Positions 8,684-39,469 of a DNA stretch of 64,000 nucleotides are shown here, piece by piece (within the stretch, counting starts at the first letter, position 1; every line of letters starts with the position of its first letter). The stretch is from NCBI GenBank assembly GCA_945957605.1, contig CAMFLR010000002.1, positions 232,197-296,196 of the forward strand. The letters are read 5' to 3'. This DNA comes from an uncultured Isosphaeraceae bacterium (lineage in GTDB: Bacteria; Planctomycetota; Planctomycetia; Isosphaerales; Isosphaeraceae). The notes beneath the pieces are model-generated. The model made no database searches and had not been told where the DNA came from. It was given only the letters and a program-made list of their open reading frames with translations. The translations under genes were made by a program, and so were the position numbers.

Positions 8684-11167
8684 ATGATGCCTTTGAAGGG
8701 GTTAAGGATAACCGTCGCCGTCGTCGCTCTCGGCGCTCTGCTCATCACGCCTGCATTCGGTCAGAAAGAGACCAGCAATTCACTCGCGCGTTACGTTCCA
8801 TCCGACGGGCTGAGCATCCTGCTCGAACACGATGGCCTCCACTCGCAGCCCAAGGTCTGGGAAGCGAGCGCGACGTACAAGATGCTCAACGAAACCAAGC
8901 TGGGGATCATGCTTGAGGATATCCTCACGCAATTGATCGACCACGGCCTTCGTTCGGTTCCACAGCCGCCGCTCAAGGGCAAGGAAATTGTCGGTCTCGT
9001 CGAACACCTGATCGACAAAGGCTTCGCCATCGGCTACTGCGGCCCGCTCAACGCGCCAACGCCAAAGGCCGCCGTGGTAGTCATTCGCGACGCCAATAAG
9101 AGTGACACGTTCAAGAAACTGATGAAGATGATCCCCCAGGCCCAGGAACCGGCTGCCAAGCAGATTGACGCCCCTGGCGGCCGCAAAGTCTGGACGATGG
9201 AAGGTGCCCCGGTCCGCTGGTGGTTCGAGAAGGATGACTTCGTCTTCTCCTTCGCTCCTCCCGGCGCTCCCGATCCTGTCGTTGCCGTCCTCGAAGGCAC
9301 CGCTCCCAGCGCACTCAAATCGCCCCTGCGCAACACGCTTTGGAAAGGGACCTCGTCCGACTACACCCCTATCGGCGTCCTCTTCGTCGATCTCTCAACC
9401 CTTCCCCAGCTCCCGCCTCAAGCGGTTCAGCTTGGACTCGACGGCGTGAAGGCGGTCGAGGCAAGTTGGGGTCTGCAAGGTAAGGCGACGGTCACGATGA
9501 TCGGCATTCAGGCGCCCAAACCGCGCCGGGGGATCATCGCCCTGTTCGACCAGCCCGCGATCGGCACAGCGACTCGCTACACCCCAGCCGACGGCGGAAA
9601 CGACTACACCGTCATGTCGATCGAGCCCGGCAAATTCGTCGATGGCATCTTCGCGCTGATGAAGCAAGCCGACGCGAACTCCGCCGCCAATGCCCAGAAA
9701 TTTGCAGCCGAATTCGAGCGCCGAACGCAGGTCAACTTGCGTAAGGATCTCCTCGGCAAGGTCGGACCGCGTATCGCTTTCTCAAGTGGAGGCGGTCTCG
9801 GCCTGAGCAACATCTTCGGCATGTGGTTCCACCCGCCGGATTTCGGAATCGTCGCCGAGTTGAAAGACCCCGAAGCATTCCAGGCCACGCTCGACAAATT
9901 GATCGCCTCGCTCAATCGCGAGTTGCGAAGTGCAGGCGCAATGGTCCCGCCGCAGCCGGGCCAGCCGGTGCGCAAAGGAACGGCCTACGCGGAATTCCGC
10001 AAACTCCCCGCGCCTGATAACGGCTACATTCTGTCGATTCCTCCTTCGGTACTCACTTTGCCGAGCGGGTTCCGGCCAACGGTGATGATCGACGCCAAGC
10101 GCAACTTGATCGCCCTCGGCGGCACAGCGAAATCGGCCGCCAAGGCTCTCACTTCGCTCGACCTTAACGCCAAGGGTGGCGAGCCAATCGCTGAAAAGGA
10201 CGCGGTCGTTTTCTCGAAGTCAGACCAGGCTCAAATCTTGCCCGAACTCCTCACGAACGTGCCCGCGATCGTGCAGTTCTTCGGTTTCGCCGCAGCACAG
10301 CCCGGCCCTGGGCGTCCCGGCGGGCCTCCGTTCCGCCTCGAAATGGATCCCGACTCGATCCCCGATCCCGACTCGATGCGTAAATTCATGTTCCCGTCGA
10401 CATACACAATGTCGGTCGACAACGATTCGATTCGCTTCACTGGCTACCAGCCGTTCCCGCTCGCAATTCCGCAGATCAGCGGAGGCATGGAAGCCCCGGT
10501 GCTCGTCGCCCTGCTGCTGCCGGCCGTTCAGGCGGCACGTGAAGCGGCCCGACGCGCCCAGTGCGTCAACAATCTCAAGCAGATTGGTCTGGCAATGCAC
10601 AACCATCACGCCGCGCTCGACGGCTTGCCGCCCCGAGCCATCACGAACGCTGCCGGCAAGCCACTACTGAGCTGGCGCGTGGCGATTTTGCCCTACATCG
10701 AACAGCAGGCGCTTTACGAAAAGTTCAAGCTCGATGAACCCTGGGATAGCCCCCATAACAGCGAACTGATCAAGTACATGCCACAGATTTATATGTGCCC
10801 GTCTCGCACAGGCGACGCAAAGGACGGCCAAACCAACTACCAGGCATTCGCTGGCGAAGGTGCCCTGTTCGACTCGCGTCGCAAGGTTTCGTTCGCCCGA
10901 GTGACCGACGGGCTCTCGAACACCCTCATGGTGGTTGAAGCCTCAACGCCAGTCACCTGGACCAAGCCCGATGACCTGCCGTTCGACGCAGCCGCAGCCA
11001 ATCCCGCGAAGCCGCTCTTCGGCGCGGGCTCCAGCCACGCCGGCGGGTTCAACGCACTCATGGGAGACGGTTCCGTTCGCTTCATCAAGTCATTGGTCTC
11101 GCCGCAAGTGATGCGTGCATTGATCACCCGCGCCGGCGGCGAAATCCTCGGTGCCGACTCGTTCTGA
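8684..11167 (+). CDS. Large secreted fusion protein: ~590-aa novel N-terminal domain plus C-terminal DUF1559 domain without the pilin-like leader
   Basis: Signal peptide [27 protein letters not shown]. The internal ...[33 protein letters not shown]... and C-terminal ...[46 protein letters not shown] are DUF1559-like. Confidence 0.8.
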
Positions 11168-29049: not shown

Positions 29050-30039
29050 TCAAAACGAATCAGCACTAATCACTTCACCACCTTGAATCGTGCTCAGCGC
29101 GAACCAGGTGTAAGGGCTGATCGAGTTCTTGATGAACCTCACGCTGCCATCGCCGAACAGCATGTTCACGCCGCCGGGATGCTTGCTGCTGAAGTTCCAG
29201 GCATACGGCTTCTGCGGCGTCCCCGGCGGTGTCGCATTCGGCTGCGAGTACTGTTGCAAGGTCAGAGCGCTCTGGCTCGGGTCGAGAATTCGCCCGTGCA
29301 CGGCAGTGTGCGTACCCGCAGCCCAGTATGGGCCATATGCCGTCGCCTGTTTGATCTGGACCGATTCACCTAGCAGCATCGTGTTGCTCAAACCATCGCG
29401 AATTTCAGAAATCCGCGTCGCGTAATCGGTCCAGAACGGAGCCTTGAACTGAGTTGCAATGCTGCCGTAGGTGTAGCCGCAGTTGTAGTCGGTATAGCTA
29501 CCGGTATTGAACAGGTGGTTACTCCGCGCGACGTTGTTCCGTTCGTAAAAGTCCGTCGTGGAAAGCGCGTTCGACGTGACGGTTTGCGGAGGATCATCCG
29601 ACGGGCAAAGGAATGAGTTGATAATAAGACCGGTCACCGTGGTGTTCACCGCATCGGTGCCAATGACAGCCACACCGTACGGACTCGACATACTCGAAGC
29701 ATGGCTGAAGTTGAATGAGTTAAACGTCTGCTGCTGTTCCATCTGGCCGAGAATCAGCGAAAAACCGGTCGTGTTTTTCACACCGTAGCCAACGGGAGGA
29801 GTGGGCGTTGTTGGTGCATTACAGCGACCGCTACCAATCATCGGCGGCGGAAATGCAGTGTTTGCACTCTCATAATTGTGAAGCGCAAGGCCGACCTGTT
29901 TCAAATTGTTCACGCACTGGGCGCGTCTGGCAGCCTCACGCGCGGCCTGCACGGCCGGCAAAAGCAGCGCAATCAACACGGCGATAATCGCGATGACAAC
30001 GAGAAGTTCAATGAGCGTGAACCCACGGCGCAAGCGCAT
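29050..30039 (-). CDS. DUF1559 domain protein with prepilin-type N-terminal motif
   Basis: [56 protein letters not shown]...[21 protein letters not shown]. The ATG at 30039 is preceded by AGGAGAT. Confidence 0.85.
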
Positions 30040-30851
30040 AAGAATCTCCTGACGTGATGAATGACGTGAAATCACGAAACGAGAAACGGCGACCTGTCAG
30101 CTCAGAAAAAGCCGACGCGTCACAATCGAAAGGGAGAGAGAATCCAGCGGCGAAAGAGGCATGCCTGAAAGGTCTTCGGAAGAGACGAAGACTCAATCAG
30201 AAGATTTGGTGAAATGGTTTCCTGATGAATTACCAATGATTTTATATATCGTGAATTCAACACGACGCAAGTAAAAAAAGTCGCTGTTGTCTAATTTCTC
30301 CACTGAAGAGAAACTCAACGCATTCTCGGGCCGGCGCACTCCGTTCTGTCGCTTATTTATGAGCAGTTTATCAAACTCCGCGATCAGACTTCCGCATCGA
30401 CCGTAACCTCCCGCCTTGACGTCATGAATTCGTCTTGCGCAATTTAAACCGAATACTTGTTTTCTTCTATTAAATGAGCCAAACCGCGAATATCTATATT
30501 CGTTCCCATGAGCGATTCAAACATTTCTAGAAGACTATGAACTGCGTTAACTGACTCTTGCGCACTTTGAACCAAAGAGCATCACAACTGCTACCACGCT
30601 TATGAGCGGAGCAAATCGAAACGTACGGACTCGCCCCACATGTGAACCCGTTGCGAGTCTTCGACGTAGAAATAGGAGCCCGAGGCCGGGCCGAGCCGTG
30701 ACCATCTGAACACCGAGGCCGGGCGATTTTCGGATCCTGGTGTGGTGCCCCTGGCCTTCCCGCGCTAAACTGGTAGGCGGCAACGTTCCTGTGCCGACCT
30801 ACCTGACCATTGCCGGGCGTTCTCTCCATCCGTCGCGAACGGAGCCGAGCT

Positions 30852-31325
30852 GTGTTGAGTTCGAAGCTAAGTGTGGGCACACACATCATGACGATCTTCG
30901 CCCTTAAACCAGGCGAAGGGCTCACGTCGGAGTTCATCGCTTCGAGCGTAAACACCAACCCCGTCGTCATCCGTCGCCTTCTCGGCTCTTTGCGCGAAGC
31001 GGGAATCGTCGATTCGAAAACCGGCGTCGGCGGCGGTTGGTCCCTGCTGGTCGATCCCGCAAAGTTGACGCTGCTCGACATCCTTCGCGCCGTCGAGCCG
31101 CAAAGCGAGATTTTCATGCTGCATCGCAGCACGCCAAATCCCGAATGCCCGTGCGGCCTGCACATTCAAGGTGTGCTGACCGAAGTGTACGACAAGGTTC
31201 AGGAAGGCATGGCGCAGCAGCTTGCCGGTGTGACGATCGCGTGCATTGCGAGCAAGATCACGACGCGAATTCAAAGCGATGAACGCGCGCGAATCGCGTT
31301 TGCAGAATGCAATGGGACCCGCTAA
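30852..31325 (+). CDS. Rrf2 family transcriptional regulator (copy 2, paralog of 25763..26236)
   Basis: The N-terminal ~100 codons are near-identical to copy 1 at DNA level (gtgttgagttcgaagct.agtgtgggcacacacatcatgacgatcttcgcccttaaacc...). The C-terminus diverges. GTG start at 30852; the track ORF starts at 30810. Confidence 0.75.
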   Translation: MLSSKLSVGTHIMTIFALKPGEGLTSEFIASSVNTNPVVIRRLLGSLREAGIVDSKTGVGGGWSLLVDPAKLTLLDILRAVEPQSEIFMLHRSTPNPECPCGLHIQGVLTEVYDKVQEGMAQQLAGVTIACIASKITTRIQSDERARIAFAECNGTR

Positions 31326-31447
31326 GCAACTCGCCGATATCGGCAAATTCTGCCCAATCAAACCAGAACACCCAATTGGCTTATTTCCGATGCGCATAAA
31401 AAAATCCGCCCGGCAAACCGGACGGATTCTTGCGTCTCAGCAGCAAA

Positions 31448-32554
31448 TCAGAGCAAGTTAACAACGCGCTCGGCCAATCCCTTTTCGCCAAGCACGACGT
31501 TCAAATGTCCTGCTGCCGCGATCTTCTCGAGAGCTTCCAGCTCGCGCAGCTTCATAAGCGCAGGGTTGTCGGTAAGCAGCTTCGCCGTATTTGCCTGGCT
31601 GCGCATCGCAGCCGTTTCTTCGCGACGGAAAATCAAGTTTGCCTCGGCCGTCTTGCGGGCCTCGGTCACCTTGTTGAACAGATCCTTCATGTCGCCAGGA
31701 AGAATCACGTCGCGAATGCCGGTTGAAAGCACGAGCAAACCGAGATCGGCTGCACGAGCGCGAAGCGTTTCCTCGGTTTCTCGAGCAACCGCATCCTTGT
31801 CTGCGAGCAACGCGTCAAGATCGCGCACGCCCACAACCGCACGGAACGCAAGCTGAGCTTCGCGATAGAGCGCCTGCTTGGCATCTTCCGTAACGCACGC
31901 AGCACGCTTGGCATCGCCGACACGATACGTCACCTGCGCATTGAGCCGAAGCGTGACCTTGTCCGACGTCATGATCTCCTGACCGCTGATATCGAGCGTC
32001 AATTCGCGCAGGTCGATTTCGACAACGCGTGTATCAGCCACACCACGCCAAAAAGCATAGCGCCCCGGTGCAAGCGTATTCGTGTAATCACCATCGACAA
32101 AAAGAGCCCCGACGCAACCGCGGTTCACCGAGACCAGTTCAAGCGTCGAGTAGACCTGAGGCGCTCGCGCGATCACTTTGAACTGTGGGTGATCGAACCG
32201 AGGCTGCGTCGCGTTGAGGATCTCGATTCGCACGTCGCGCGGATTCGTCCAATACGCGTAGAGGCCAGGCGACAAAATGCCGCTGAAGCGACCATCAATC
32301 CAGACAAGCGCGCGCTGATCGTCCTTGAGGTCGACCATCACGGCAAGCCCCTTGAGTACGCCCGACTTGACGATGAGGTCAAGCTTCTCGTGCACAAGCT
32401 GAGGCGCACGCTGCGAGACCACTTCTACGACGTGGCGTCGGAGTGGGTCGAAAATCCAGTGCGTCCCCTCGTTGAGCAGGCCCTGGAATTCTCCTTCGCG
32501 AAAATGTAGACCTACTTCATAGCTGCGAATCTTGATACGGCGAAGCCGCAACAT
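31448..32554 (-). CDS. SPFH/Band-7 (stomatin/prohibitin-like) domain protein
   Basis: ...DVILPGDMKDLFNKVTEARKTAEANLIFRREETAAMRSQANTAKLL.. is a typical SPFH C-terminal region. Confidence 0.7.
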   Translation of the reverse strand: MLRLRRIKIRSYEVGLHFREGEFQGLLNEGTHWIFDPLRRHVVEVVSQRAPQLVHEKLDLIVKSGVLKGLAVMVDLKDDQRALVWIDGRFSGILSPGLYAYWTNPRDVRIEILNATQPRFDHPQFKVIARAPQVYSTLELVSVNRGCVGALFVDGDYTNTLAPGRYAFWRGVADTRVVEIDLRELTLDISGQEIMTSDKVTLRLNAQVTYRVGDAKRAACVTEDAKQALYREAQLAFRAVVGVRDLDALLADKDAVARETEETLRARAADLGLLVLSTGIRDVILPGDMKDLFNKVTEARKTAEANLIFRREETAAMRSQANTAKLLTDNPALMKLRELEALEKIAAAGHLNVVLGEKGLAERVVNLL

Positions 32555-32933
32555 GGGAGCCTCCTCGCCCCCGGACAGAGTCCATTGGGCAATTATGAAA
32601 AAGACATCGGCAATTGGGTGGTTAAGGAAAAGCCGTCGGGAGACGAATCGCCGAACCGATCACACGAACGGAACGCGGAGAAGGTTTGAGCTACTTCACT
32701 GATTGACGATTGGCCCAGCGCCGGAATACCGAAGCCGAAGCTTTGGGGGATTACCGGACTTTCGGCTGTCATCCAATCAGATGGAGCAGCGGAATCCACT
32801 TTCTACAGGGCGATCATTCGTGGTGCCGAGGATGATATTAAACCATCTTCCACGGTGGATCGAATCGTTCGCTCGTCTCCCTCGGGCCAGAGTAGAGACG
32901 TTTCACGGTCTCGTGAGTCGGTGTTAAGCCGAC

Positions 32934-33007
32934 GGTTGTGGACGGGAGTCGAACCCGCTACCTACAGATTCTAAGTCTGTCGCTCTATCCAGGTGAGCTA
33001 CCACGCC
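32934..33007 (-). tRNA. tRNA-like gene with anticodon UAG but a class-I (short variable loop) shape; acceptor stem has two mismatches, so possibly a pseudo-tRNA
   Basis: Sense strand: GGCGTGG TA GCTC ACCTGGATA GAGC G ACAGA CTTAGAA TCTGT AGGTA GCGGG TTCGACT CCCGT CCACAAC. Confidence 0.5.
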
Positions 33008-33147
33008 TACGACATCGCCCCGGTTTTCATTCCATTCACGGAACGCCCTGCGCCAATCGCCAAAAGCGAGGCCGGTACGCCGCTGGCCCGACGATGCCAT
33101 ATGCTCTCTTGCAAAGTTGAGTATGAGAATTCTGATCCTCATACAAG

Positions 33148-33218
33148 AGACGCTGGTGGGAGTCGAACCCACTTCCACCGGGTTGCAGCCGGTTGCCTGG
33201 CCGTCTGGCTCCAGCGTC
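33148..33218 (-). tRNA. tRNA-Cys (GCA)
   Basis: Sense strand: GACGCTG...ACCGG CTGCAAC CCGGT...TGGG TTCGACT CCCA CAGCGTC; perfect acceptor stem. Confidence 0.8.
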
Positions 33219-33234
33219 ATGTTTACGATTTCAA

Positions 33235-33306
33235 TGTCCTCGCCGGGAGTTGAACCCGGTCCTCGACCTTCGCAGAGTCGTGTGCCATCCATCACACCCC
33301 GAGGAC
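33235..33306 (-). tRNA. tRNA-Arg (GCG), an unusual anticodon for bacteria
   Basis: Sense strand: GTCCTCG GG GTGT GATGGATG GCAC A CGACT CTGCGAA GGTCG AGGA CCGGG TTCAACT CCCGG CGAGGAC. Confidence 0.6.
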
Positions 33307-33328
33307 GTGTTTACCCAAACAACGAAAA

Positions 33329-33399
33329 TCCCCCGCCCGGGAGTCGAACCCGGCCTTGCGGCTTCGAACACCGCCGTGCACCCAACACACTCACAGGGA
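33329..33399 (-). tRNA. tRNA-Arg (UCG)-like; G at position 32 and a wobble-rich acceptor stem
   Basis: Anticodon arm GCGGT GTTCGAA GCCGC; T-arm CCGGG TTCGACT CCCGG; acceptor TCCCTGT/GCGGGGG with three G-U pairs. Confidence 0.5.
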
Positions 33400-33400
33400 G

Positions 33401-33472
33401 TACGCCCGCCAGGAGTCGAACCTGGTCCACAACTTGAGAAAAGTCGTGTGCCGTTCGTAACACTCCAAGGGC
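33401..33472 (-). tRNA. tRNA-Arg (UCU)-like; C at position 37 is non-canonical
   Basis: Anticodon arm CGACT TTTCTCA AGTTG; T-arm CCAGG TTCGACT CCTGG; acceptor GCCCTTG/CGGGCGT with one mismatch. Confidence 0.5.
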
Positions 33473-33481
33473 AAAAAACAG

Positions 33482-33551
33482 CAGGAGCGCAAGGATTTGA
33501 ACCCTGTCCGTCCGGGTTGGAGCCGGAGTCCTCTCCCAGGAGGACGCTCCT
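33482..33551 (-). tRNA. tRNA-Trp (CCA) with an irregular D-arm
   Basis: Anticodon arm TCCGG CTCCAAC CCGGA (anticodon CCA); perfect acceptor AGGAGCG/CGCTCCT. The D region forms a 6-bp hairpin GTCCTC-CTGGGA-GAGGAC instead of a canonical 4-bp stem. Confidence 0.6.
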
Positions 33552-33559
33552 GTCATGAA

Positions 33560-34150
33560 TCACGCAAGTGCGAGACTCGGTGCATCATTTACGAATCGCG
33601 ACCAGCTTGCGATCGCACCGTCATGAATTGCGTGGAATGGCTTCCAGTCGGGCCGAGTCGGCCGGCGACGCAAATGCATTCCCGCCTGCTCGGGCGTGCG
33701 GTCTGCCTTGATCGCATTGCACTCCGGGCAAGCCGCCACGCAGTTCAACCAGCTTGATGTACCACCGCGCGATCGCGGAATGATGTGGTCGATGGTGATT
33801 CGATCCCACCCCGGCTGTACGCCGCAATACTGACACGTGTGATGATCGCGCTTGGCGACGTTGCGGCGGCTGAAAGCAACCGCCTTCGAGGGCACACGGT
33901 CATAATGTGTCAAGCATACAACTTCGGGGACTCGCAGACGCCTGTGAGCCGTGCGAATACAAGGAGCATCGAGCGGAGGAGTGAGTTCCGACCATTCGTG
34001 CCAGCCGTAGAGCCGATACTCATCCGGCTCAACGACCTGGGCCGCCTCGTTCCAGAGCATCGTCAGAGCACGAACCACGCTCGTCACGTGGATCGGTTGC
34101 CAATGTCGGTTGAGAACTAGCGTTTGTCGAGCAAGCACATCGGTCGTCAT
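33560..34150 (-). CDS. HNH endonuclease embedded in the tRNA array
   Basis: Track ORF 33560..34387; its first 79 codons merely overlap tRNA-His and tRNA-Ser. The real start is M80 (MTTDVLARQTLVLNRHWQPIHV) at 34150, preceded by GGAGG. The HNH motif is ...HHTCQYCGVQPGWDRITIDHIIPRSRGGTSSWLNCVAACPECNAIK. Confidence 0.75.
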   Translation of the reverse strand: MTTDVLARQTLVLNRHWQPIHVTSVVRALTMLWNEAAQVVEPDEYRLYGWHEWSELTPPLDAPCIRTAHRRLRVPEVVCLTHYDRVPSKAVAFSRRNVAKRDHHTCQYCGVQPGWDRITIDHIIPRSRGGTSSWLNCVAACPECNAIKADRTPEQAGMHLRRRPTRPDWKPFHAIHDGAIASWSRFVNDAPSLALA

Positions 34151-34176
34151 CGAAACCTCCGAGAAACGAAAACCAG

Positions 34177-34249
34177 GGTGCCCGGCGGGAGTTGAACCCA
34201 GCGCCTTGAGATCCACAATCTCATGTGCTTCCGTTACACCACGGGCACC
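34177..34249 (-). tRNA. tRNA-His (GUG) with genomically encoded G-1:C73
   Basis: Sense strand: G-GTGCCCG TG GTGT AACGGAA GCAC A TGAGA TTGTGGA TCTCA AGGCG CTGGG TTCAACT CCCGC CGGGCAC C. Confidence 0.85.
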
Positions 34250-34334
34250 ATCAATACTGAAACGTGTCGAAACCGTAACTCCTTCTACTCTCCACTCTCT
34301 CCGTTCTCCTCTCTCTTCGCCGCAGGCGAAGAAG

Positions 34335-34420
34335 CGGAAGGCAAGGGATTCGAACCCCCATGCCCTTTCGAGCGCACTCTTTAGCAAAGAGGCCCGGCAA
34401 ACCGTATCCGGCTACCTTCC
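34335..34420 (-). tRNA. tRNA-Ser (GCU), class II with a long variable arm
   Basis: Sense strand: GGAAGGT AG CCGG ... CCTCT TTGCTAA AGAGT GCGCTCGAAAGGGCAT GGGGG TTCGAAT CCCTT GCCTTCC G. Confidence 0.8.
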
Positions 34421-34431
34421 GTAAAAACCAG

Positions 34432-34502
34432 TGGACAGCCGGGGAATTGAACCCCGATCTCCTGGGTGCAAACCAGGTGTCTTCCCATTGGACCAGCCGC
34501 CC
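34432..34502 (-). tRNA. tRNA-Ala (UGC) with the G3:U70 identity pair
   Basis: Sense strand: GGGCGGC TG GTCC AATGGGA AGAC A CCTGG TTTGCAC CCAGG AGAT CGGGG TTCAATT CCCCG GCTGTCC A. Confidence 0.85.
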
Positions 34503-34531
34503 ATCCTCATACGATCACACAAACAACCGAA

Positions 34532-34604
34532 TCATCCCGGCAGGACTCGAACCTGCGGTATCCTGCTTGTAGGGCAGGCGTCTTGGCCGCTAGACGACGG
34601 GACG
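34532..34604 (-). tRNA. tRNA-Val (UAC)
   Basis: Sense strand: CGTCCCG TC GTCT AGCGGCCA AGAC G CCTGC CCTACAA GCAGG ATACC GCAGG TTCGAGT CCTGC CGGGATG A. Confidence 0.75.
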
Positions 34605-34697
34605 ATCATTCGCGAGTTGCGGGTTCAGGAGTTGCACCTGAGGACCAGGTTTATGAGACCCAGTTGAGCGCTGGCCCACCCGCAAATTGTATAACAG

Positions 34698-34772
34698 CGC
34701 CCCCGATGGGATTTGAACCCACGGCCTCTACCTTGACAGGGTAGCGAGCACTCCAGACTGCTCCACGAGGGC
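34698..34772 (-). tRNA. tRNA-Asp (GUC)
   Basis: Anticodon arm CTACC CTGTCAA GGTAG; T-arm GTGGG TTCAAAT CCCAT; acceptor GCCCTCG/CGGGGGC; discriminator G. Confidence 0.85.
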
Positions 34773-34801
34773 GAATGATCGATTGACATAGAGTGAGAGA
34801 G

Positions 34802-34875
34802 TAGCCCGAGAGGGATTCGAACCCCCAATGCCCTGCTTCTAAGGCAGGTGGCTTTGCCAGTTAGCCTACCGGGCC
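34802..34875 (-). tRNA. Well-formed class-I tRNA with anticodon UAG (Leu by anticodon, but a short variable loop); atypical
   Basis: Sense strand: GGCCCGG TA GGCT AACTGGCAA AGCC A CCTGC CTTAGAA GCAGG GCATT GGGGG TTCGAAT CCCTC TCGGGCT A. Confidence 0.6.
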
Positions 34876-34887
34876 ATGTTTCGAGAG

Positions 34888-34962
34888 TTCCGGGTGCTGG
34901 AATCGAACCAGCGGCCTCCGCGTTCAGAGCGCGGTGTCACTACCAACAGCAACTGCCCCGGA
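34888..34962 (-). tRNA. tRNA-Gln (CUG)
   Basis: Anticodon arm CCGCG CTCTGAA CGCGG; T-arm GCTGG TTCGATT CCAGC; U1-A72. Confidence 0.8.
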
Positions 34963-35008
34963 TCAAATTTGATAATTCGTGCTTACGCTACTTGAACACT
35001 TCTCAATG

Positions 35009-35084
35009 TTCGGGGAGCAGGAATCGAACCTGCGAACTCCTGATTCAAATTCAGGGATTTCTTACCAACAGAAACTACCCCCGA
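35009..35084 (-). tRNA. tRNA-Gln (UUG)
   Basis: Anticodon arm CCTGA ATTTGAA TCAGG; T-arm GCAGG TTCGATT CCTGC; acceptor TCGGGGG/TCCCCGA. Confidence 0.8.
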
Positions 35085-35085
35085 G

Positions 35086-35158
35086 AGTGCCCTGCGGGAG
35101 TTGAACCCGCCTGTCCGGTTTGGAAGACCGGTGCCTCAAGCCGCTCGGCCAAGGGCAC
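35086..35158 (-). tRNA. tRNA-Gly (UCC)
   Basis: Anticodon arm CCGGT CTTCCAA ACCGG; T-arm GCGGG TTCAACT CCCGC; acceptor GTGCCCT/AGGGCAC; discriminator U. Confidence 0.8.
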
Positions 35159-35177
35159 TTTTTCAATTCAAACAAAG

Positions 35178-35252
35178 CACCGGGGGCAGGAATCGAACCT
35201 ACGAACTCCTCATTAACAGTGAGGCGCATAAACCAGCTTATGCGACCCCGGT
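35178..35252 (-). tRNA. tRNA-Asn (GUU)
   Basis: Anticodon arm CCTCA CTGTTAA TGAGG; T-arm GTAGG TTCGATT CCTGC; acceptor ACCGGGG/CCCCGGT. Confidence 0.85.
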
Positions 35253-35276
35253 ATGGATCGATCTGGCTGAAAGCCA

Positions 35277-35347
35277 AGTGCCCAGCGGGAGTCGAACCCG
35301 CACATCCGCCATGGCAAGACGGTAGGCTACCGCTACATCATGGGCAC
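35277..35347 (-). tRNA. tRNA-Gly (GCC)
   Basis: Anticodon arm CCGTC TTGCCAT GGCGG; T-arm GCGGG TTCGACT CCCGC; acceptor GTGCCCA/TGGGCAC. The D-arm pairing is ambiguous. Confidence 0.7.
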
Positions 35348-35382
35348 GAACGTATTGCAACCTGATTGTCAAAGAAGCCGAG

Positions 35383-35454
35383 AGCACCGGGTGGGACTCG
35401 AACCCACGTTGCCGCATTACGAATGCGGAGTCTTCGCCGCTAGACGACCAGTGC
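35383..35454 (-). tRNA. tRNA-Thr (CGU)
   Basis: Anticodon arm CCGCA TTCGTAA TGCGG; T-arm GTGGG TTCGAGT CCCAC; acceptor GCACTGG/CCGGTGC. Confidence 0.75.
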
Positions 35455-35462
35455 AAGCCGAA

Positions 35463-35534
35463 TGAGACCGGAGGGATTTGAACCCTCACCCCCTGGTTAA
35501 GAGCCAGGCATGCTGCCAGTAACACTTCAGTCCC
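35463..35534 (-). tRNA. tRNA-Lys (CUU)
   Basis: Anticodon arm CCTGG CTCTTAA CCAGG; T-arm GAGGG TTCAAAT CCCTC; D-stem GTGT/GCAT, shared with the other Lys tRNA. Confidence 0.8.
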
Positions 35535-35551
35535 GAACCTATGTGCGTGAG

Positions 35552-35622
35552 TCGGCTCAGGAGGAGTTGAACCTCCGTCTCGCGGTTATCAGCCGCGTGT
35601 TCTGCCGTTGAACTACAAGCCG
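35552..35622 (-). tRNA. tRNA-Ile (GAU)
   Basis: Anticodon arm CGCGG CTGATAA CCGCG; D-arm GTTC AACGGCA GAAC; T-arm GGAGG TTCAACT CCTCC. Confidence 0.85.
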
Positions 35623-35650
35623 GCAGTGCGTCTTTTCGTTGGCCTATAGA

Positions 35651-35722
35651 TGGGGCCGGAGGGATTCGGACCCTCACCAACCGGCTTAAAAGGCCGATAT
35701 GCCGCCGTTACACCACAGCCCC
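35651..35722 (-). tRNA. tRNA-Lys (UUU)
   Basis: Anticodon arm TCGGC CTTTTAA GCCGG; T-loop TCCGAAT; acceptor GGGGCTG/CGGCCCC. Confidence 0.85.
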
Positions 35723-35845
35723 GCATAAGTCTGCATGAGGGCCGCGCGTTTATACCTAATCATGTTCCGCTCCGAATCTGAACTCTTTCTACTCTCCACT
35801 CTCTTCATTCAACTCTCTATTTTTTGACGCAAAAGCGGCAAAAAA

Positions 35846-35919
35846 TCGGGATGGCCGGATTCGAACCGGCGCTCTCCTGCTCCCAAGGCAGGCGGATTAC
35901 CAGACTTTCCTACATCCCG
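35846..35919 (-). tRNA. tRNA-Pro (UGG)
   Basis: Anticodon arm CCTGC CTTGGGA GCAGG; T-arm GCCGG TTCGAAT CCGGC; perfect acceptor CGGGATG/CATCCCG. Confidence 0.85.
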
Positions 35920-35932
35920 TGCAATGAGCGAG

Positions 35933-36006
35933 CAGCCCGTGAGGGAATCGAACCCTGCCTCTCCGCCTTGAAAGAGCGGTGTCCTGAACCGATAGACGAA
36001 CGGGCC
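35933..36006 (-). tRNA. tRNA-Glu (UUC)
   Basis: Anticodon arm CCGCT CTTTCAA GGCGG; T-arm CAGGG TTCGATT CCCTC; acceptor GGCCCGT/ACGGGCT. Confidence 0.8.
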
Positions 36007-36028
36007 ATAGAACCTTCAACGAGCCGAG

Positions 36029-36100
36029 TGGACTGGGTGGCGCTCGAATCCACGTCTGCGGTGCTTCAAACCGCCGCTATACCGTCTCAGCTACCAGTCC
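36029..36100 (-). tRNA. tRNA-Phe (GAA)
   Basis: Anticodon arm GCGGT TTGAAGC ACCGC; D-arm GCTG AGACGGTA TAGC; perfect acceptor GGACTGG/CCAGTCC. Confidence 0.75.
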
Positions 36101-36108
36101 ATTCAAAC

Positions 36109-36142
36109 GAAAAAGGCCCGGCAGTCGCTGTGACGCCGGGCC
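36109..36142 (-). terminator. Rho-independent-type terminator (minus strand) just upstream of the tRNA array
   Basis: On the + strand: aaaaa GGCCCGGC agtcgctgtgac GCCGGGCC, an 8-bp GC stem. On the minus strand it is followed by a U-run. Confidence 0.45.
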
Positions 36143-36175
36143 CGGTCGAACCATTCAAGGTTGATGAGCTGGCAA

Positions 36176-36436
36176 TCACAATCGCAGATTAAACGCGCAC
36201 TCGGGACCCGTCGGTTGACCGTTCAGTCGACCCGCATCATTATGATCTCGGAGGTAACTGGAACGATTCGTTAACACGGCGGCCTCGGTGGTCTTGTAAG
36301 TGATGACTTCGCGTCTGTGCTCAGTGTAGACGCACATCCCTCGCAAGATGTTCGCGCTTTCTCGGCGATTTTTCGCGAATTGTTCGCTCATCGGCTTTTC
36401 GGACTCCTTATGAGGTGAGGAGCCCGAATTCGCCAA
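36176..36436 (-). CDS. Hypothetical small protein (86 aa)
   Basis: ORF only; a co-directional terminator lies downstream; no recognisable domain. Confidence 0.25.
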   Translation of the reverse strand: MANSGSSPHKESEKPMSEQFAKNRRESANILRGMCVYTEHRREVITYKTTEAAVLTNRSSYLRDHNDAGRLNGQPTGPECAFNLRL

Positions 36437-36607
36437 CTGACCGAATGTGAGCCAGTTCGTCGCAAAGTTTTGATGATCGCTTCAGCCGGTGCCCTAGTTC
36501 TTGGACTCCTTGTCCTTGGATTCTTCGGGCAACGCTTTCTCAATGCGTTCGAGTTTGCGGAGAACTCCTTCAAGCATAATCTCGGTACGTCTCAACCTCT
36601 CCTCCAG

Positions 36608-39469
36608 TTACCGAATGGATTCATCCGTTTGCGTCTTGGGCGCAGTTACCGCTATTCTCGGCTGCATTGCATTGGGAGCAGGCGCCCGCGTATCGACCGC
36701 CTCCTCACGAGGCACAAGCACGATCGTCGAAAGCTCGAAACTACCCTGTTGTCCTTCATCATCACGAGCGAGTGCGGTCAGCCTCATCTCGTACGGAAAC
36801 GTACCCGCCGGAAGCGGTTTACCCGTCAAATCCCGAAACGTCCTGCGCAGCGAAGGTAGATTTCGTTCGGCAGTCGCACTGTCGGTTCGTACTGGAACCT
36901 GGCGAACCTTCCATGCATCAAGCGGCGAAATGCGCAACGTGCCCGACGTACGATCGACGCTCACACCGGGTATGTCTCGCGCCAATGCGTAGGTCAAAGC
37001 ACCTTTACCGCCAGACGCCTTGAGTTTGACTTCGATTTGATCATGCAGCCTGGTTACCAACGGCATTCGCGGGGTATCGAAATGCACGGGCACGGGAGCG
37101 GTTGTAACGGCCACCAGCGGAATGGGCGCGAGATATAATTGATGGTAACGAACGACCGCCATGGTGCCTTGAACGGCGGCGATGAGCGGCGAATCGCTTG
37201 AATGGATGAACTGGTTATAGGGGGTACTCGCCGGCAACTCGCCAATGACTTGACTGTTCAGTACGTTTCCCTGGATCAAGTCGCGATATTCCATAACCTC
37301 GCGCAATGTTCGTGTCGTGCCCGGGGCTTCCATGTGCGAGACGACAACCACCGGGAACTCCGTCAAAATTGTCGCCCGCGCATTATTCCAGCGCGTCACC
37401 TGGTTTCCACGCCAGTCGACCAAAGACTCTCCATTGATGCGCCGGCTCCAGCAGTCGTGGCCTTGCATCACAAAACCGACCATCGGTGCCCCATCGCCTA
37501 TGATCGTCGGGAGATTCAGCGATCCGCTAAGGCAAATCGGCTCGCCACCCTCGGGCGGCAAGCATTGCGCATCGACCCAGACCGTGCCACCGGGTTGCTT
37601 GCTGGCGCGGACAGCCGTCCGCGGAAATAGGCTTGAATCACTGGACGAGCCGTCTGCGCTTTGGTCGATCGGCTGCAGTGTTTTCGGGTTGTACGATCGC
37701 CGCTTGCCGTTCTGTGAGACTACCGACAATACCGACCCCGGCAGTTCCTCAATAAACGTCGCCGGCGAATCGAGGAATACGCGTTCAGCGTCATCAGGCT
37801 CGTTTGGAGATAGTCGATAGAGAAACGCACCTTCTGTAGGTGTGTAGAAAATCGTTCCATCAATCGACACCAAACCGCGCACTTGGCGATGCAGCAGACG
37901 ACGTGTGATGATTCGCCCCTGCTCGGTGTCAACGACGACCACCACACTAGGTGTTCCCTGTCCCAAGCCTTCGACGGCTTGCCCGTCCGTCGATGGCTTC
38001 TGCCCCCAAAGCACAACGCGAGGCCGACGCGCATCGACCGCCATTCCCAGCGCAATCATTCCGAGATCGACCGTTTTGACACCAACGCGAACCTCAATGG
38101 TCGCCCGATCGGTCACATCACCGGACTTCGCGCCGACGACAATCTTGTGCAACCCCGCTTCGACCGCCGTCGGCGACCATACCAACTCGTTGTCCCGCAC
38201 CGCCGCTCCGTCTGGTCCCGAGACAACTTCAAGCGTCGTCTTCGCCTTCAACTCCGGGTTGGTCAACGCCAGCGGCACCTTGATCGTGGTTCCGACGGCG
38301 GCCGTCACTTGCGACGGCACTTCAAGCACCAACGCCGGCGCTGCTTCGACTCCCGCCTTCTTGAGGTCGACGATGTATCCGATCTGACGCCAGGTGACGA
38401 CAAGTCGCTCACGTTTGGCGTCGAACCGAATGTACGGATCTGATCCACCACGGACGCCTTGCACATTGCCACTGTCACGGGGTTCTGCGAAGGCGTCAAC
38501 AAGTGGTCCCAGAACCAGATTCTTCAGCGTGCGGGCTTGTGAGTGCGTTTGAAAAACGACAGACACAGTGCTATTCGTAACTGGCGCGCCCGTCGGCTGA
38601 ACCAGAGGCTTTTGAGCCGAATCAACAAGCGATGCGACGAGGTCGAGCCTGGGATGCACAGCAACCGGTGCTCCCGCAAAAGTCCGGATCGGCCCAGTCA
38701 AGTCGATAGCGTACAGCGTGCTCCCTAAAACCCATCCCCGATTCTGAGGCGCAGCAATGGTCGGCCCAAAGCTCTCGTGAAGGTGCTGCCGACCGCGAAA
38801 CTCCAGAGTTGACTCATCAACTTCCATGAGATCACCACCGCTCGGGCTCGACGCGCCACGAGCATCGGGAGAGATCCAGCGGCCATTGTCCGACATCACC
38901 ACGTGAACCGGATGCGACTGATTCCAGCGCTGCACGCGCACACGTCCTCTGATCGAGCGTGCCGCGACGTCTACCTGAAACACCTCACCATCCCACCAGG
39001 CCGATCCTGTATTGCAAATCGCATAAACATAAGGATTGTCGGCCTTCGAGCCGAAAAGGGCATACGGCCCCTTGCCCGTTAACTGCACATTCCCAAGAAC
39101 CTTGTTGGTATCAAGGTCGATCACATAGAGCGATGATGTCGACTGGCAGGCCGCGACGAGCCGTCTCCCCTTGATAAACAATTCGGTCGGCCTTGCAGCG
39201 ACCGTGAACTGCGTTTTTGGTTCGCTCGACGCAGGATCGATTTCGACGACGCGATTACTTCCAACCAGCGCCGCGAAGATACGCCCGGAAGCCTCGTCAA
39301 GCGCCCACGCCGAGACTTCGTCTTTCACTCGAAACGATTTGATACCCGCAACGGTTTCATCGGCATAAATGCGGGAACTAGTTCCGCACAGAATCCAGAA
39401 CGCGAGACCAATCGGAATTGCGATAGCGAACCCAAATCGACGACATGGCAACAAAGCGAGATTCGACAT
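36608..39469 (-). CDS. Large secreted protein (953 aa) with beta-propeller/Ig-like regions; unknown function
   Basis: Signal peptide MSNLALLPCRRFGFAIAIPIGLAFWILCGTSSRIYA. Long uninterrupted ORF with beta-rich repeat composition (..YVYAICNTGSAWW.., ..LYVIDLDTNKVLGNVQL..). Confidence 0.7.
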   Translation of the reverse strand: MSNLALLPCRRFGFAIAIPIGLAFWILCGTSSRIYADETVAGIKSFRVKDEVSAWALDEASGRIFAALVGSNRVVEIDPASSEPKTQFTVAARPTELFIKGRRLVAACQSTSSLYVIDLDTNKVLGNVQLTGKGPYALFGSKADNPYVYAICNTGSAWWDGEVFQVDVAARSIRGRVRVQRWNQSHPVHVVMSDNGRWISPDARGASSPSGGDLMEVDESTLEFRGRQHLHESFGPTIAAPQNRGWVLGSTLYAIDLTGPIRTFAGAPVAVHPRLDLVASLVDSAQKPLVQPTGAPVTNSTVSVVFQTHSQARTLKNLVLGPLVDAFAEPRDSGNVQGVRGGSDPYIRFDAKRERLVVTWRQIGYIVDLKKAGVEAAPALVLEVPSQVTAAVGTTIKVPLALTNPELKAKTTLEVVSGPDGAAVRDNELVWSPTAVEAGLHKIVVGAKSGDVTDRATIEVRVGVKTVDLGMIALGMAVDARRPRVVLWGQKPSTDGQAVEGLGQGTPSVVVVVDTEQGRIITRRLLHRQVRGLVSIDGTIFYTPTEGAFLYRLSPNEPDDAERVFLDSPATFIEELPGSVLSVVSQNGKRRSYNPKTLQPIDQSADGSSSDSSLFPRTAVRASKQPGGTVWVDAQCLPPEGGEPICLSGSLNLPTIIGDGAPMVGFVMQGHDCWSRRINGESLVDWRGNQVTRWNNARATILTEFPVVVVSHMEAPGTTRTLREVMEYRDLIQGNVLNSQVIGELPASTPYNQFIHSSDSPLIAAVQGTMAVVRYHQLYLAPIPLVAVTTAPVPVHFDTPRMPLVTRLHDQIEVKLKASGGKGALTYALARDIPGVSVDRTSGTLRISPLDAWKVRQVPVRTDSATAERNLPSLRRTFRDLTGKPLPAGTFPYEMRLTALARDDEGQQGSFELSTIVLVPREEAVDTRAPAPNAMQPRIAVTAPKTQTDESIR

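Follow-up and report, generated by a model that had tools for sequence, protein, structure and literature searches.

An HNH nuclease gene between tRNA-His and tRNA-Trp in conserved planctomycete tRNA arrays

The nuclease gene and its tRNA array

We analysed a 64-kb window, that is, the whole stretch of 64,000 nucleotides (nt) at positions 232,197-296,196 of contig CAMFLR010000002.1 from an uncultured Isosphaeraceae bacterium, and focused on a putative HNH nuclease gene that lies inside a tRNA array. ARAGORN called 25 tRNA genes (Phe ... Cys, Leu) at 32934-36100 (-), all of them on the minus strand and co-oriented with the nuclease open reading frame (ORF), and called no tRNA gene elsewhere in the window. 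The nuclease gene occupies 33560-34150 (-), with its ATG at 34148-34150 and its TGA at 33560-33562, and translates into a protein of 196 amino acids (aa; MTTDVLARQ...SLALA). Directly 5' of it lies tRNA-His(GTG) (34176-34248, -; 52 bits in Rfam), and directly 3' of it tRNA-Trp(CCA) (33481-33551, -). These ARAGORN flanks agree with a preliminary description of this DNA, which had placed an HNH gene between the same two tRNAs, and the motifs that it cited for the 196-aa product (HHTCQYCG, IDHIIPRSRGG and CPECN) are all found in the translation.

The gene is closely fitted between its neighbours: 25 nt separate the tRNA-His 3' end, as set by ARAGORN, from the ATG, and 8 nt separate the stop codon from the tRNA-Trp 5' end, near the ~9 nt estimated earlier. 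A GGAGG Shine-Dalgarno (SD) sequence at 34156-34160 (-) stands 5 nt before the ATG and 15 nt past the ARAGORN 3' end of tRNA-His, which corrects the 27 nt first given for the latter distance. A promoter scan of 32400-36700 returned a sole promoter-like site, on the opposite strand and outside the array, and terminator-like sites in the same interval numbered 5 against 4.9 expected from shuffled sequence; both scans are uninformative. The window as a whole resembles a planctomycete chromosome, with genes for DUF1559/N-methyl proteins, a Ser/Thr kinase-WD40 protein and an AcrB homologue, and gene calls on the array flanks revealed neither an integrase nor a transposase.

Several tRNAs of the array depart from the canonical form. 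In Rfam, tRNA-Trp, tRNA-Arg(tct) and tRNA-Arg(tcg) (33329-33551, -) as well as tRNA-Met (34616-34684, -) gave no tRNA match even at E<=1, Ser-gct matched only the tRNA-Sec model, below the threshold of that model, and Gln-ctg barely passed the cut-off (30.7 versus 29 bits). The preliminary description had taken the nuclease gene as the boundary between canonical and degenerate tRNAs. This holds for Trp, Arg-tct and Arg-tcg just downstream of the gene, but the odd Met, Ser-gct and Gln-ctg lie upstream of it, and Arg-gcg, Cys and Leu, farther downstream, score ~50 bits.

In the tRNA-Trp, the acceptor/D linker measures 1 nt and the variable loop 3 nt, and compensatory changes among 19 loci preserve 13 of the 21 pairs of its cloverleaf; judged by this covariation, the odd tRNA-Trp is non-canonical and apparently not decayed. 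Its unusual length (71 nt), like that of tRNA-Met (~69 nt), is shared by many loci. The tRNA-His gene encodes a G at position -1 and a C discriminator. Because of these features of tRNA-His and the compensatory pairing of tRNA-Trp, the array tRNAs look functional and not decayed. A second tRNA-Leu(tag) (32934-33007, -) ends the window array after a 139-nt gap and has the same anticodon as the mid-array Leu(tag) (34801-34875, -). Inside the arrays of related loci, which we designate by L numbers, ARAGORN also called 90-97-nt tRNAs and tRNA-??? genes whose anticodons have 2 or 4 bases (L011, 1658-1749 and 1890-1984; L013, L017, L022, L023, L044, L051), which may represent insertions, introns or decayed copies.

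The HNH (beta-beta-alpha-metal) domain of the nuclease is encoded at 33671-33868 (-), approximately residues 95-160, and contains two CxxC pairs (C106/C109 and C141/C144) along with D121-H122, N136 and N145. A Pfam profile search, proposed in the preliminary description, placed HNH_5 (PF14279; 52.3 bits, cut-off 27.5) and HNH (PF01844; 51.7 bits, cut-off 21.4) over residues 106-160, both well above threshold. Residues C106, C109, D121, H122, N136, C141, C144 and N145 were invariant in 45 planctomycete and cyanobacterial sequences, and we propose that the protein is a putative active zinc-HNH nuclease. HNH is its only Pfam domain: RuvC is absent, and NUMOD, IENR and AP2-type DNA-binding modules were not found by Pfam. 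The best NCBIfam models for the HNH domain were Cas9d (4.9e-13) and IscB (1e-12), and sequence matches in the PDB comprised TbaIscB (4e-9), Gme HNH (5.5e-7) and EcoKMcrA (0.0038), the last confined to the HNH motif at residues 113-145. By sequence similarity, the domain is nearest to the HNH of IscB/Cas9 and not to McrA. An McrA annotation was rejected, the similarity being limited to the HNH motif.

The N-terminal domain, encoded at 33896-34150 (-) (approximately residues 1-85), was characterized by structural comparison, residues 1-95 having no Pfam match. With this domain as a query, the top three Foldseek hits were IscB and most of the top ten were IscB or IsrB, none of them significant; the predicted fold is PLMP-like, with IsrB and IscB as the top structural matches. 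The relative reported for the PLMP domain is IF3-N (PMC9581776). A database search with a PLMP peptide returned one protein only, and cyanobacterial family members carry VVVFSKNYLPL..RAIVLL..GQAE, whose resemblance to the PLMP motif region was judged by eye. Taken together, the two domains match the PLMP+HNH "IshB" architecture as modelled, which would make the protein similar in build to the smallest Cas9 relatives. The family is compact: clustered at 50% identity, it comprises 283 clusters at E<=1e-30, 4112 at 1e-10 and 28727 at 1e-3, and most of the best 150 are two-domain proteins of ~185-210 aa, the remainder being fragments and a few longer proteins.

Recurrence and selection among homologues

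More than 7900 database homologues were found, the best 120 of which are full-length (~194-200 aa) and, with the exception of one identical sequence, share 64-76% identity with the window protein. A genome scan limited to one genome per species gave 80 loci, nearly all from Planctomycetota, in Isosphaeraceae, Pirellulales, Planctomycetaceae and Thermoguttaceae. The closest set, 74 genomic loci at >=50% identity, was used to check whether homologues recur inside tRNA clusters, as the preliminary description had suggested, and they do: a same-strand tRNA lies <=300 nt from the gene in 44 of the 74, and at least 10 tRNAs lie within 5 kb in 33. The immediate neighbours also recur, with tRNA-His(gtg) directly upstream in 34 and tRNA-Trp(cca) downstream in 28 of these loci. 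For comparison, genomes carry ~50-100 tRNAs (Table 1, PMC4807772), and we estimate that the chance of finding a tRNA <=300 nt from a random gene is perhaps ~1-2%.

The synteny reads Phe-Glu-Pro-Ile-Lys ... Ser-Arg-His-[HNH]-Trp-Thr-Arg-Arg-Arg-Cys in arrays of 20-40 tRNAs, and this order is shared across the four sampled groups. Leaders of 18-35 nt containing GGAG, GAGG or AGGA are common to most of the array loci. Another array type, ...Arg(cct)-Arg(ccg)-Arg(acg)-[HNH], has the nuclease gene at the array end and occurs in Fraserbacteria, Nitrospiraceae and IMG/VR contigs. On viral contigs, at least 3 tRNAs within 5 kb accompany 17 of the 26 relatives with >=37% identity and 10 of the 54 with <37% identity, and jumbo phages and cyanophages likewise have HNH genes within their tRNA clusters, homologous to the window protein over both domains. 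When metagenome contigs were scanned for HNH-less arrays with a degenerate pattern of the conserved tRNA-Trp, the scan gave one short locus only and recovered none.

The gene is under strong purifying selection. The ratio of non-synonymous to synonymous substitution rates (dN/dS) was 0.03-0.19 in 20 of 21 pairs, the remaining pair being saturated at synonymous sites; array copies ranged from 0.04 to 0.19 and stand-alone copies from 0.03 to 0.15. Truncated HNH ORFs were rare (3 of 80 genomic copies: L010, L075 and L078). In a neighbour-joining tree, array and stand-alone copies are interleaved and group, by inspection, largely according to the taxonomic label of the contig. Three genomes have two arrays with an intact HNH gene in each (L011/L013, L053/L054 and L023/L029), the L011 and L013 arrays lying 48 kb apart on one contig, and in one metagenome-assembled genome an array copy (L060) coexists with a stand-alone one (L025). 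The neighbours of stand-alone copies encode an aminotransferase, an oxidoreductase, HD, FHA and metallo-beta-lactamase-fold proteins, and others.

Chance insertion and a pseudogene are both rejected, because the tRNA context is recurrent and dN/dS is low. Given the low dN/dS, the few truncations, the tree pattern, the stand-alone paralogues and the intact duplicated copies, these features fit a protein of cellular function of which the arrays carry their own copy, and not a free-standing homing endonuclease that invades and then decays.

Further features were noted around the HNH gene in individual arrays. A GC-rich hairpin (e.g., GCCCCCGG...CCGGGGGC) lies between the HNH stop codon and the next tRNA in many loci (L002, L011, L015, L017, L019, L022, L030, L031, L042, L043 and others); the window, with its gap of only 8 nt, lacks it. 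In five arrays, a family of ~240-265-aa proteins with the motif CGHDExHWFVA and a basic RRKxK stretch is encoded just 5' of tRNA-His and the HNH gene (L044, 3944-4738; L051, 4054-4641; L052, 4065-4811; L053, 4132-4845; L070, 4075-4863), and neither Pfam nor NCBIfam matched this family. A gene for a 23S-rRNA-intervening-sequence protein (four-helix bundle, bAvd-like) lies antisense between the HNH gene and tRNA-Trp in L013 (5645-6025, -) and L016 (5623-6003, -). In L045, an ORF at 3810-4601 (-), resembling an IS3-family transposase by eye only, lies between tRNA-His and the HNH gene.

Genes adjoining the arrays

Just downstream of the window array, a gene at 31448-32554 (-) encodes a 368-aa SPFH/Band 7 protein (Pfam Band_7) with a 140-aa N-terminal extension. 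An SPFH gene follows the array in the window and in ten other loci (L011, L013, L016, L020, L022, L030, L031, L050, L051 and L092): same-strand homologues with 61-66% identity to the window protein were found in seven, and an independent query raised the number to ten. This arrangement recurs over several planctomycete orders, and a 29%-identical SPFH gene lies inside the array in L024 and L043. PADLOC gave no match for the window SPFH protein or for the two other flanking ORFs tested. Convergent with the SPFH gene is a gene for an Rrf2-family regulator at 30852-31325 (+) of the window, which was also called in metagenome contigs with an identical locus.

Genes for RNA repair form the second group of recurrent neighbours. 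A Ro60/Rsr orthologue (TROVE + vWA) directly follows the array in nine loci (L001, 8026-9822; L017, 7021-8652; L019, L024, L042, L043, L067, L093 and L109), one of them on a viral contig whose array is of another type, and fragments occur in two more. The RNA 3'-phosphate cyclase RtcA is encoded after SPFH in L022 (8572-9771), phage Tunturi_5 (L083) encodes RtcB and RimK at most a few kb from its HNH gene and tRNA cluster, and an RtcB fragment lies at the end of a viral contig that carries an array. Between genomes, the downstream flanks of the planctomycete arrays are conserved and the upstream flanks unrelated. Just past the Ro60 gene of L017 lies a JetD-like gene (Wadjet; DUF3322 + JetD_C) at 8752-9909 (-).

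A similar gene set is known from Anabaena as a regulon. Deletion of trcR derepresses all8564 (an HNH gene) and the trn array along with rtcB, rimK and a slipin gene; several of the promoters involved are footprinted by TrcR, and the regulon also includes a second HNH (PMC10272220). All of this set except rimK was reported to be induced by translational stress (PMC8421152; PMC10272220). The array-linked gene set of planctomycetes and phages is nearly the same as this TrcR regulon. The genes are physically linked in planctomycetes, co-regulated in Anabaena and found together in phages, and these three lines agree in suggesting that they jointly help to deal with tRNA damage or stalled translation.

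Interpretation and comparison with known systems

Supernumerary tRNA sets that spread horizontally, known as long tRNA arrays (L-arrays), have been described in several phyla, Planctomycetes among them (PMC8421152). Our preferred reading, which we hold tentatively and with somewhat less than even confidence, is that the window gene is the planctomycete version of the L-array HNH, a two-domain protein that purifying selection maintains as a functional part of the array, and not a decaying selfish insert. Of the two alternatives raised in the preliminary description, this favours a functional partner of the array, in view of the dN/dS values, the fixed slot, the stand-alone paralogues and the linkage to RNA-repair and SPFH genes, and disfavours a simple selfish insertion; the particular functions named there for such a partner (tRNA processing, tRNA targeting, counter-defence) are at most candidates.

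From the observed anatomy, recurrence, selection, fold and gene linkage, we infer how such a component may be expressed and used, namely co-transcription with tRNA-punctuated processing, RNA or tRNA binding by the N-terminal domain, a substrate and a physiological role. The short gaps, the SD and the absence of signals within the array suggest tRNA-punctuated expression: one transcript would cover the nuclease ORF and the tRNAs, cleavage at tRNA-His and tRNA-Trp by RNase Z and RNase P would free an mRNA with a short leader, and the nuclease would appear only upon expression of the array. Nucleic acid would then be cut at the zinc-stabilised HNH site, and the PLMP-like domain may dock the nuclease on tRNA-shaped RNA or on tRNA-gene DNA; in IsrB, PLMP contacts the terminal hairpin and SD of a guide RNA located just 5' of the ORF (PMC9581776). 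The nuclease might thereby act in a response to translational stress or tRNA damage, along with the supernumerary tRNAs, SPFH and the Ro60/Rtc RNA-repair genes.

Several observations weigh against this reading. The window itself has the SPFH gene and neither a Ro60 nor an Rtc gene, and the stand-alone copies lie amid ordinary, varied genes with no bias toward RNA repair. The window protein and its close relatives are known from sequence alone. The PLMP assignment of the N-terminal domain is a purely structural one: an hhalign comparison with the DtIsrB PLMP peptide found the right register at a non-significant E of 0.29, and Pfam RRXRR was unmatched at E<=10 in all 18 N-domains. Distant relatives (31-34% identity) lie near phage terminase and portal genes, a context that points to DNA nicking as the basic activity of the family. 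An RNA-level role is further weakened because the closest HNH enzymes by sequence (IscB/Cas9 HNH and Gme HNH) cut DNA and because HNH products (3'-OH, 5'-P) are not RtcB substrates. With the nearest characterised HNH domains cutting DNA, the most conservative biochemical guess, by analogy, would be DNA nicking at tRNA genes.

A nuclease of this kind might instead serve the array itself. Like SegB of phage T4, it could nick or cut DNA at tRNA genes or at array-less sites, drive gene conversion, duplication, amplification or horizontal spread of the whole array, and be selected for array propagation and not for host physiology. The literature reads array HNHs as homing endonucleases (PMC8421152; PMC5966550), SegB is reported to amplify anti-defence tRNA loci (PMC13096335), and among characterised HNH domains the nearest ones nick or cleave DNA; arrays are, moreover, found on plasmids, phages and viral contigs and duplicated within genomes, and the upstream flanks of planctomycete arrays are unconserved. 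We regard this explanation, the main rival, as less probable. The dN/dS of 0.03-0.19, the His-Trp slot fixed over the sampled families, a protein tree that by inspection largely follows contig taxonomy, and stand-alone paralogues that are equally conserved with no array at all are at odds with it, as are the absence of NUMOD, IENR and AP2-type modules from the Pfam results, the lack of an integrase or transposase flanking the window array, and the co-regulation of the Anabaena homologue with translation-stress genes.

The resemblance to IscB raises the further idea of an RNA-guided or RNA-scaffolded nuclease of the OMEGA type, in which PLMP would hold a structured RNA, possibly the adjacent tRNA or pre-tRNA, and this RNA would direct the HNH domain to complementary nucleic acid. 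PLMP+HNH is the published definition of IshB (PMC11610941, PMC10734217), the HNH domain is closest to that of IscB/Cas9, and a tRNA occupies the position of the IsrB guide RNA, just 5' of the ORF (PMC9581776). However, RuvC, the bridge helix and the TI parts, which hold the guide and heteroduplex in IscB/IsrB, are absent, the upstream tRNA varies with the array type (His, Arg, Ala, Thr, Cys, Leu), and Rfam finds only tRNAs in window positions 30000-38000 and no RNA families in 14 stand-alone loci. Together with the absence of a conserved upstream non-coding stretch in the clearest stand-alone clade, of any IS200/IS605 context seen and of a transposase called in the flanks, this makes the OMEGA-type reading very improbable. 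Harder still to credit is that the gene encodes an ordinary restriction or defence nuclease of the McrA type, or an HNH for phage packaging, and sits in the array by accident. JGI labels homologues McrA, PADLOC gives weak domain-level matches to PtuB, Cas9 and restriction HNHs, and distant relatives lie near terminase genes; yet EcoKMcrA matches in the HNH motif alone (E 0.0038; the value for IscB is 4e-9), the N-domain is PLMP-like and not a modified-base reader, the tRNA context recurs far above chance, and the window flanks contain no PtuA, methylase or terminase. The homologues are therefore not the ordinary McrA enzymes with no recurrent tRNA context that, according to the preliminary description, would have spoken for a simple insertion. 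A more far-reaching proposal, which we consider improbable, is that PLMP+HNH proteins work on or with tRNA-shaped RNA, PLMP holding the adjacent tRNA or pre-tRNA in a manner similar to its grip on the guide-RNA terminal hairpin in IsrB/IscB; that the arrays, the nuclease, SPFH and Ro60/Rtc would form one mobile system for rescue from tRNA damage; and that the PLMP and HNH modules of IscB/Cas9 would have their source in such free-living proteins.

Long tRNA arrays, horizontally spread in many phyla and phages, have been discussed as a reserve for translational stress or as an anti-defence measure against tRNA-cutting toxins. The HNH nuclease is their near-universal protein companion and is usually dismissed as a homing endonuclease. 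Seen from the planctomycete arrays, which are physically linked to SPFH and Ro60/Rtc genes, this companion is strongly conserved, apparently wired into the tRNA transcript and, on the structural model, built like the smallest Cas9 relatives. A full-text literature search found no mention, for array-linked HNHs, of a PLMP/IshB-type architecture or of the strength of purifying selection, nor any mention of a SPFH-Ro60-RtcA linkage to arrays. These new points (architecture, selection and the SPFH-Ro60-RtcA linkage) sharpen the question of the role of the array HNH without answering it, and turn an annotation footnote into a testable question, namely whether the nuclease targets tRNA, pre-tRNA or tRNA genes, for which candidate proteins and loci are supplied here.

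Among known systems, the gene can be compared with T4 SegB, with RNA-repair operons, with IshB and with the HNH genes of other long arrays. SegB is likewise a nuclease gene amid clustered tRNA genes, and promotes the inheritance or amplification of the T4 tRNA region (as cited in PMC8421152; PMC13096335). It differs, however, in being a GIY-YIG enzyme, non-homologous to HNH, and a patchy phage gene, as opposed to the strong purifying selection and largely vertical pattern seen here. To the RNA-repair operons (rsr-yrlA-rtcBA) the likeness is one of gene content, as Ro60/Rsr, RtcA and RtcB adjoin these arrays in several loci and, in Anabaena, rtcB shares its regulation with the array and the array HNH; the window, in contrast, is without rsr and rtc genes, and we know of no HNH nuclease that is a member of rsr-yrlA-rtcBA operons. 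IshB, compared here by secondary description as a PLMP + HNH protein of ~180 aa in the OMEGA family (PMC11610941, PMC10734217), shares the size class (196 aa here), an IscB/Cas9-type HNH, the absence of RuvC and, as predicted, a PLMP-like N-terminal fold. In contrast to IshB, the window gene stands in a presumed tRNA operon and not in an IS200/IS605 element, omega-RNA was undetected, and the PLMP sequence similarity is not significant.

The closest parallel in both sequence and setting is provided by the array HNHs of Cyanobacteria and Mycobacterium, which are homologous to the window protein over both domains. In tblastn, the window protein matched the HNH gene WP_010999558 on Nostoc/Anabaena pCC7120delta with 33% identity over 84% of the query (residues 3-167, E 3e-20); this gene sits 267 nt upstream of 24 tRNA genes, which is the position published for all8564 of Anabaena/Nostoc PCC 7120. 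The HNH inside the pCBMA213_1 array matched with 38% identity (residues 1-167, E 4e-22). In cyanobacteria, arrays are preceded by a conserved HNH "homing endonuclease" gene, all8564, and translational stress co-induces both (PMC8421152). In Mycobacterium, the HNH gene is the most widespread coding sequence of tRNA array units (PMC5966550), and in M. avium a single embedded HNH is conserved in all four array types (PMC12803027); planctomycete "degenerate tRNA gene clusters" had been noted as well (PMC4807772). Genes of the all8564 type and the window gene alike lie in or beside a same-strand array of at least 20 tRNAs and are comparably well conserved within their phyla. The planctomycete gene, however, has a fixed intra-array slot, His-[HNH]-Trp, whereas the Anabaena gene is a separate upstream transcription unit; the gene order of the arrays differs between the phyla, and regulation by TrcR is cyanobacterial only (PMC10272220). 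The association of arrays with HNH genes is already published for Cyanobacteria, Mycobacterium and phages, and the planctomycete His-[HNH]-Trp case is a new, phylum-wide instance of it.

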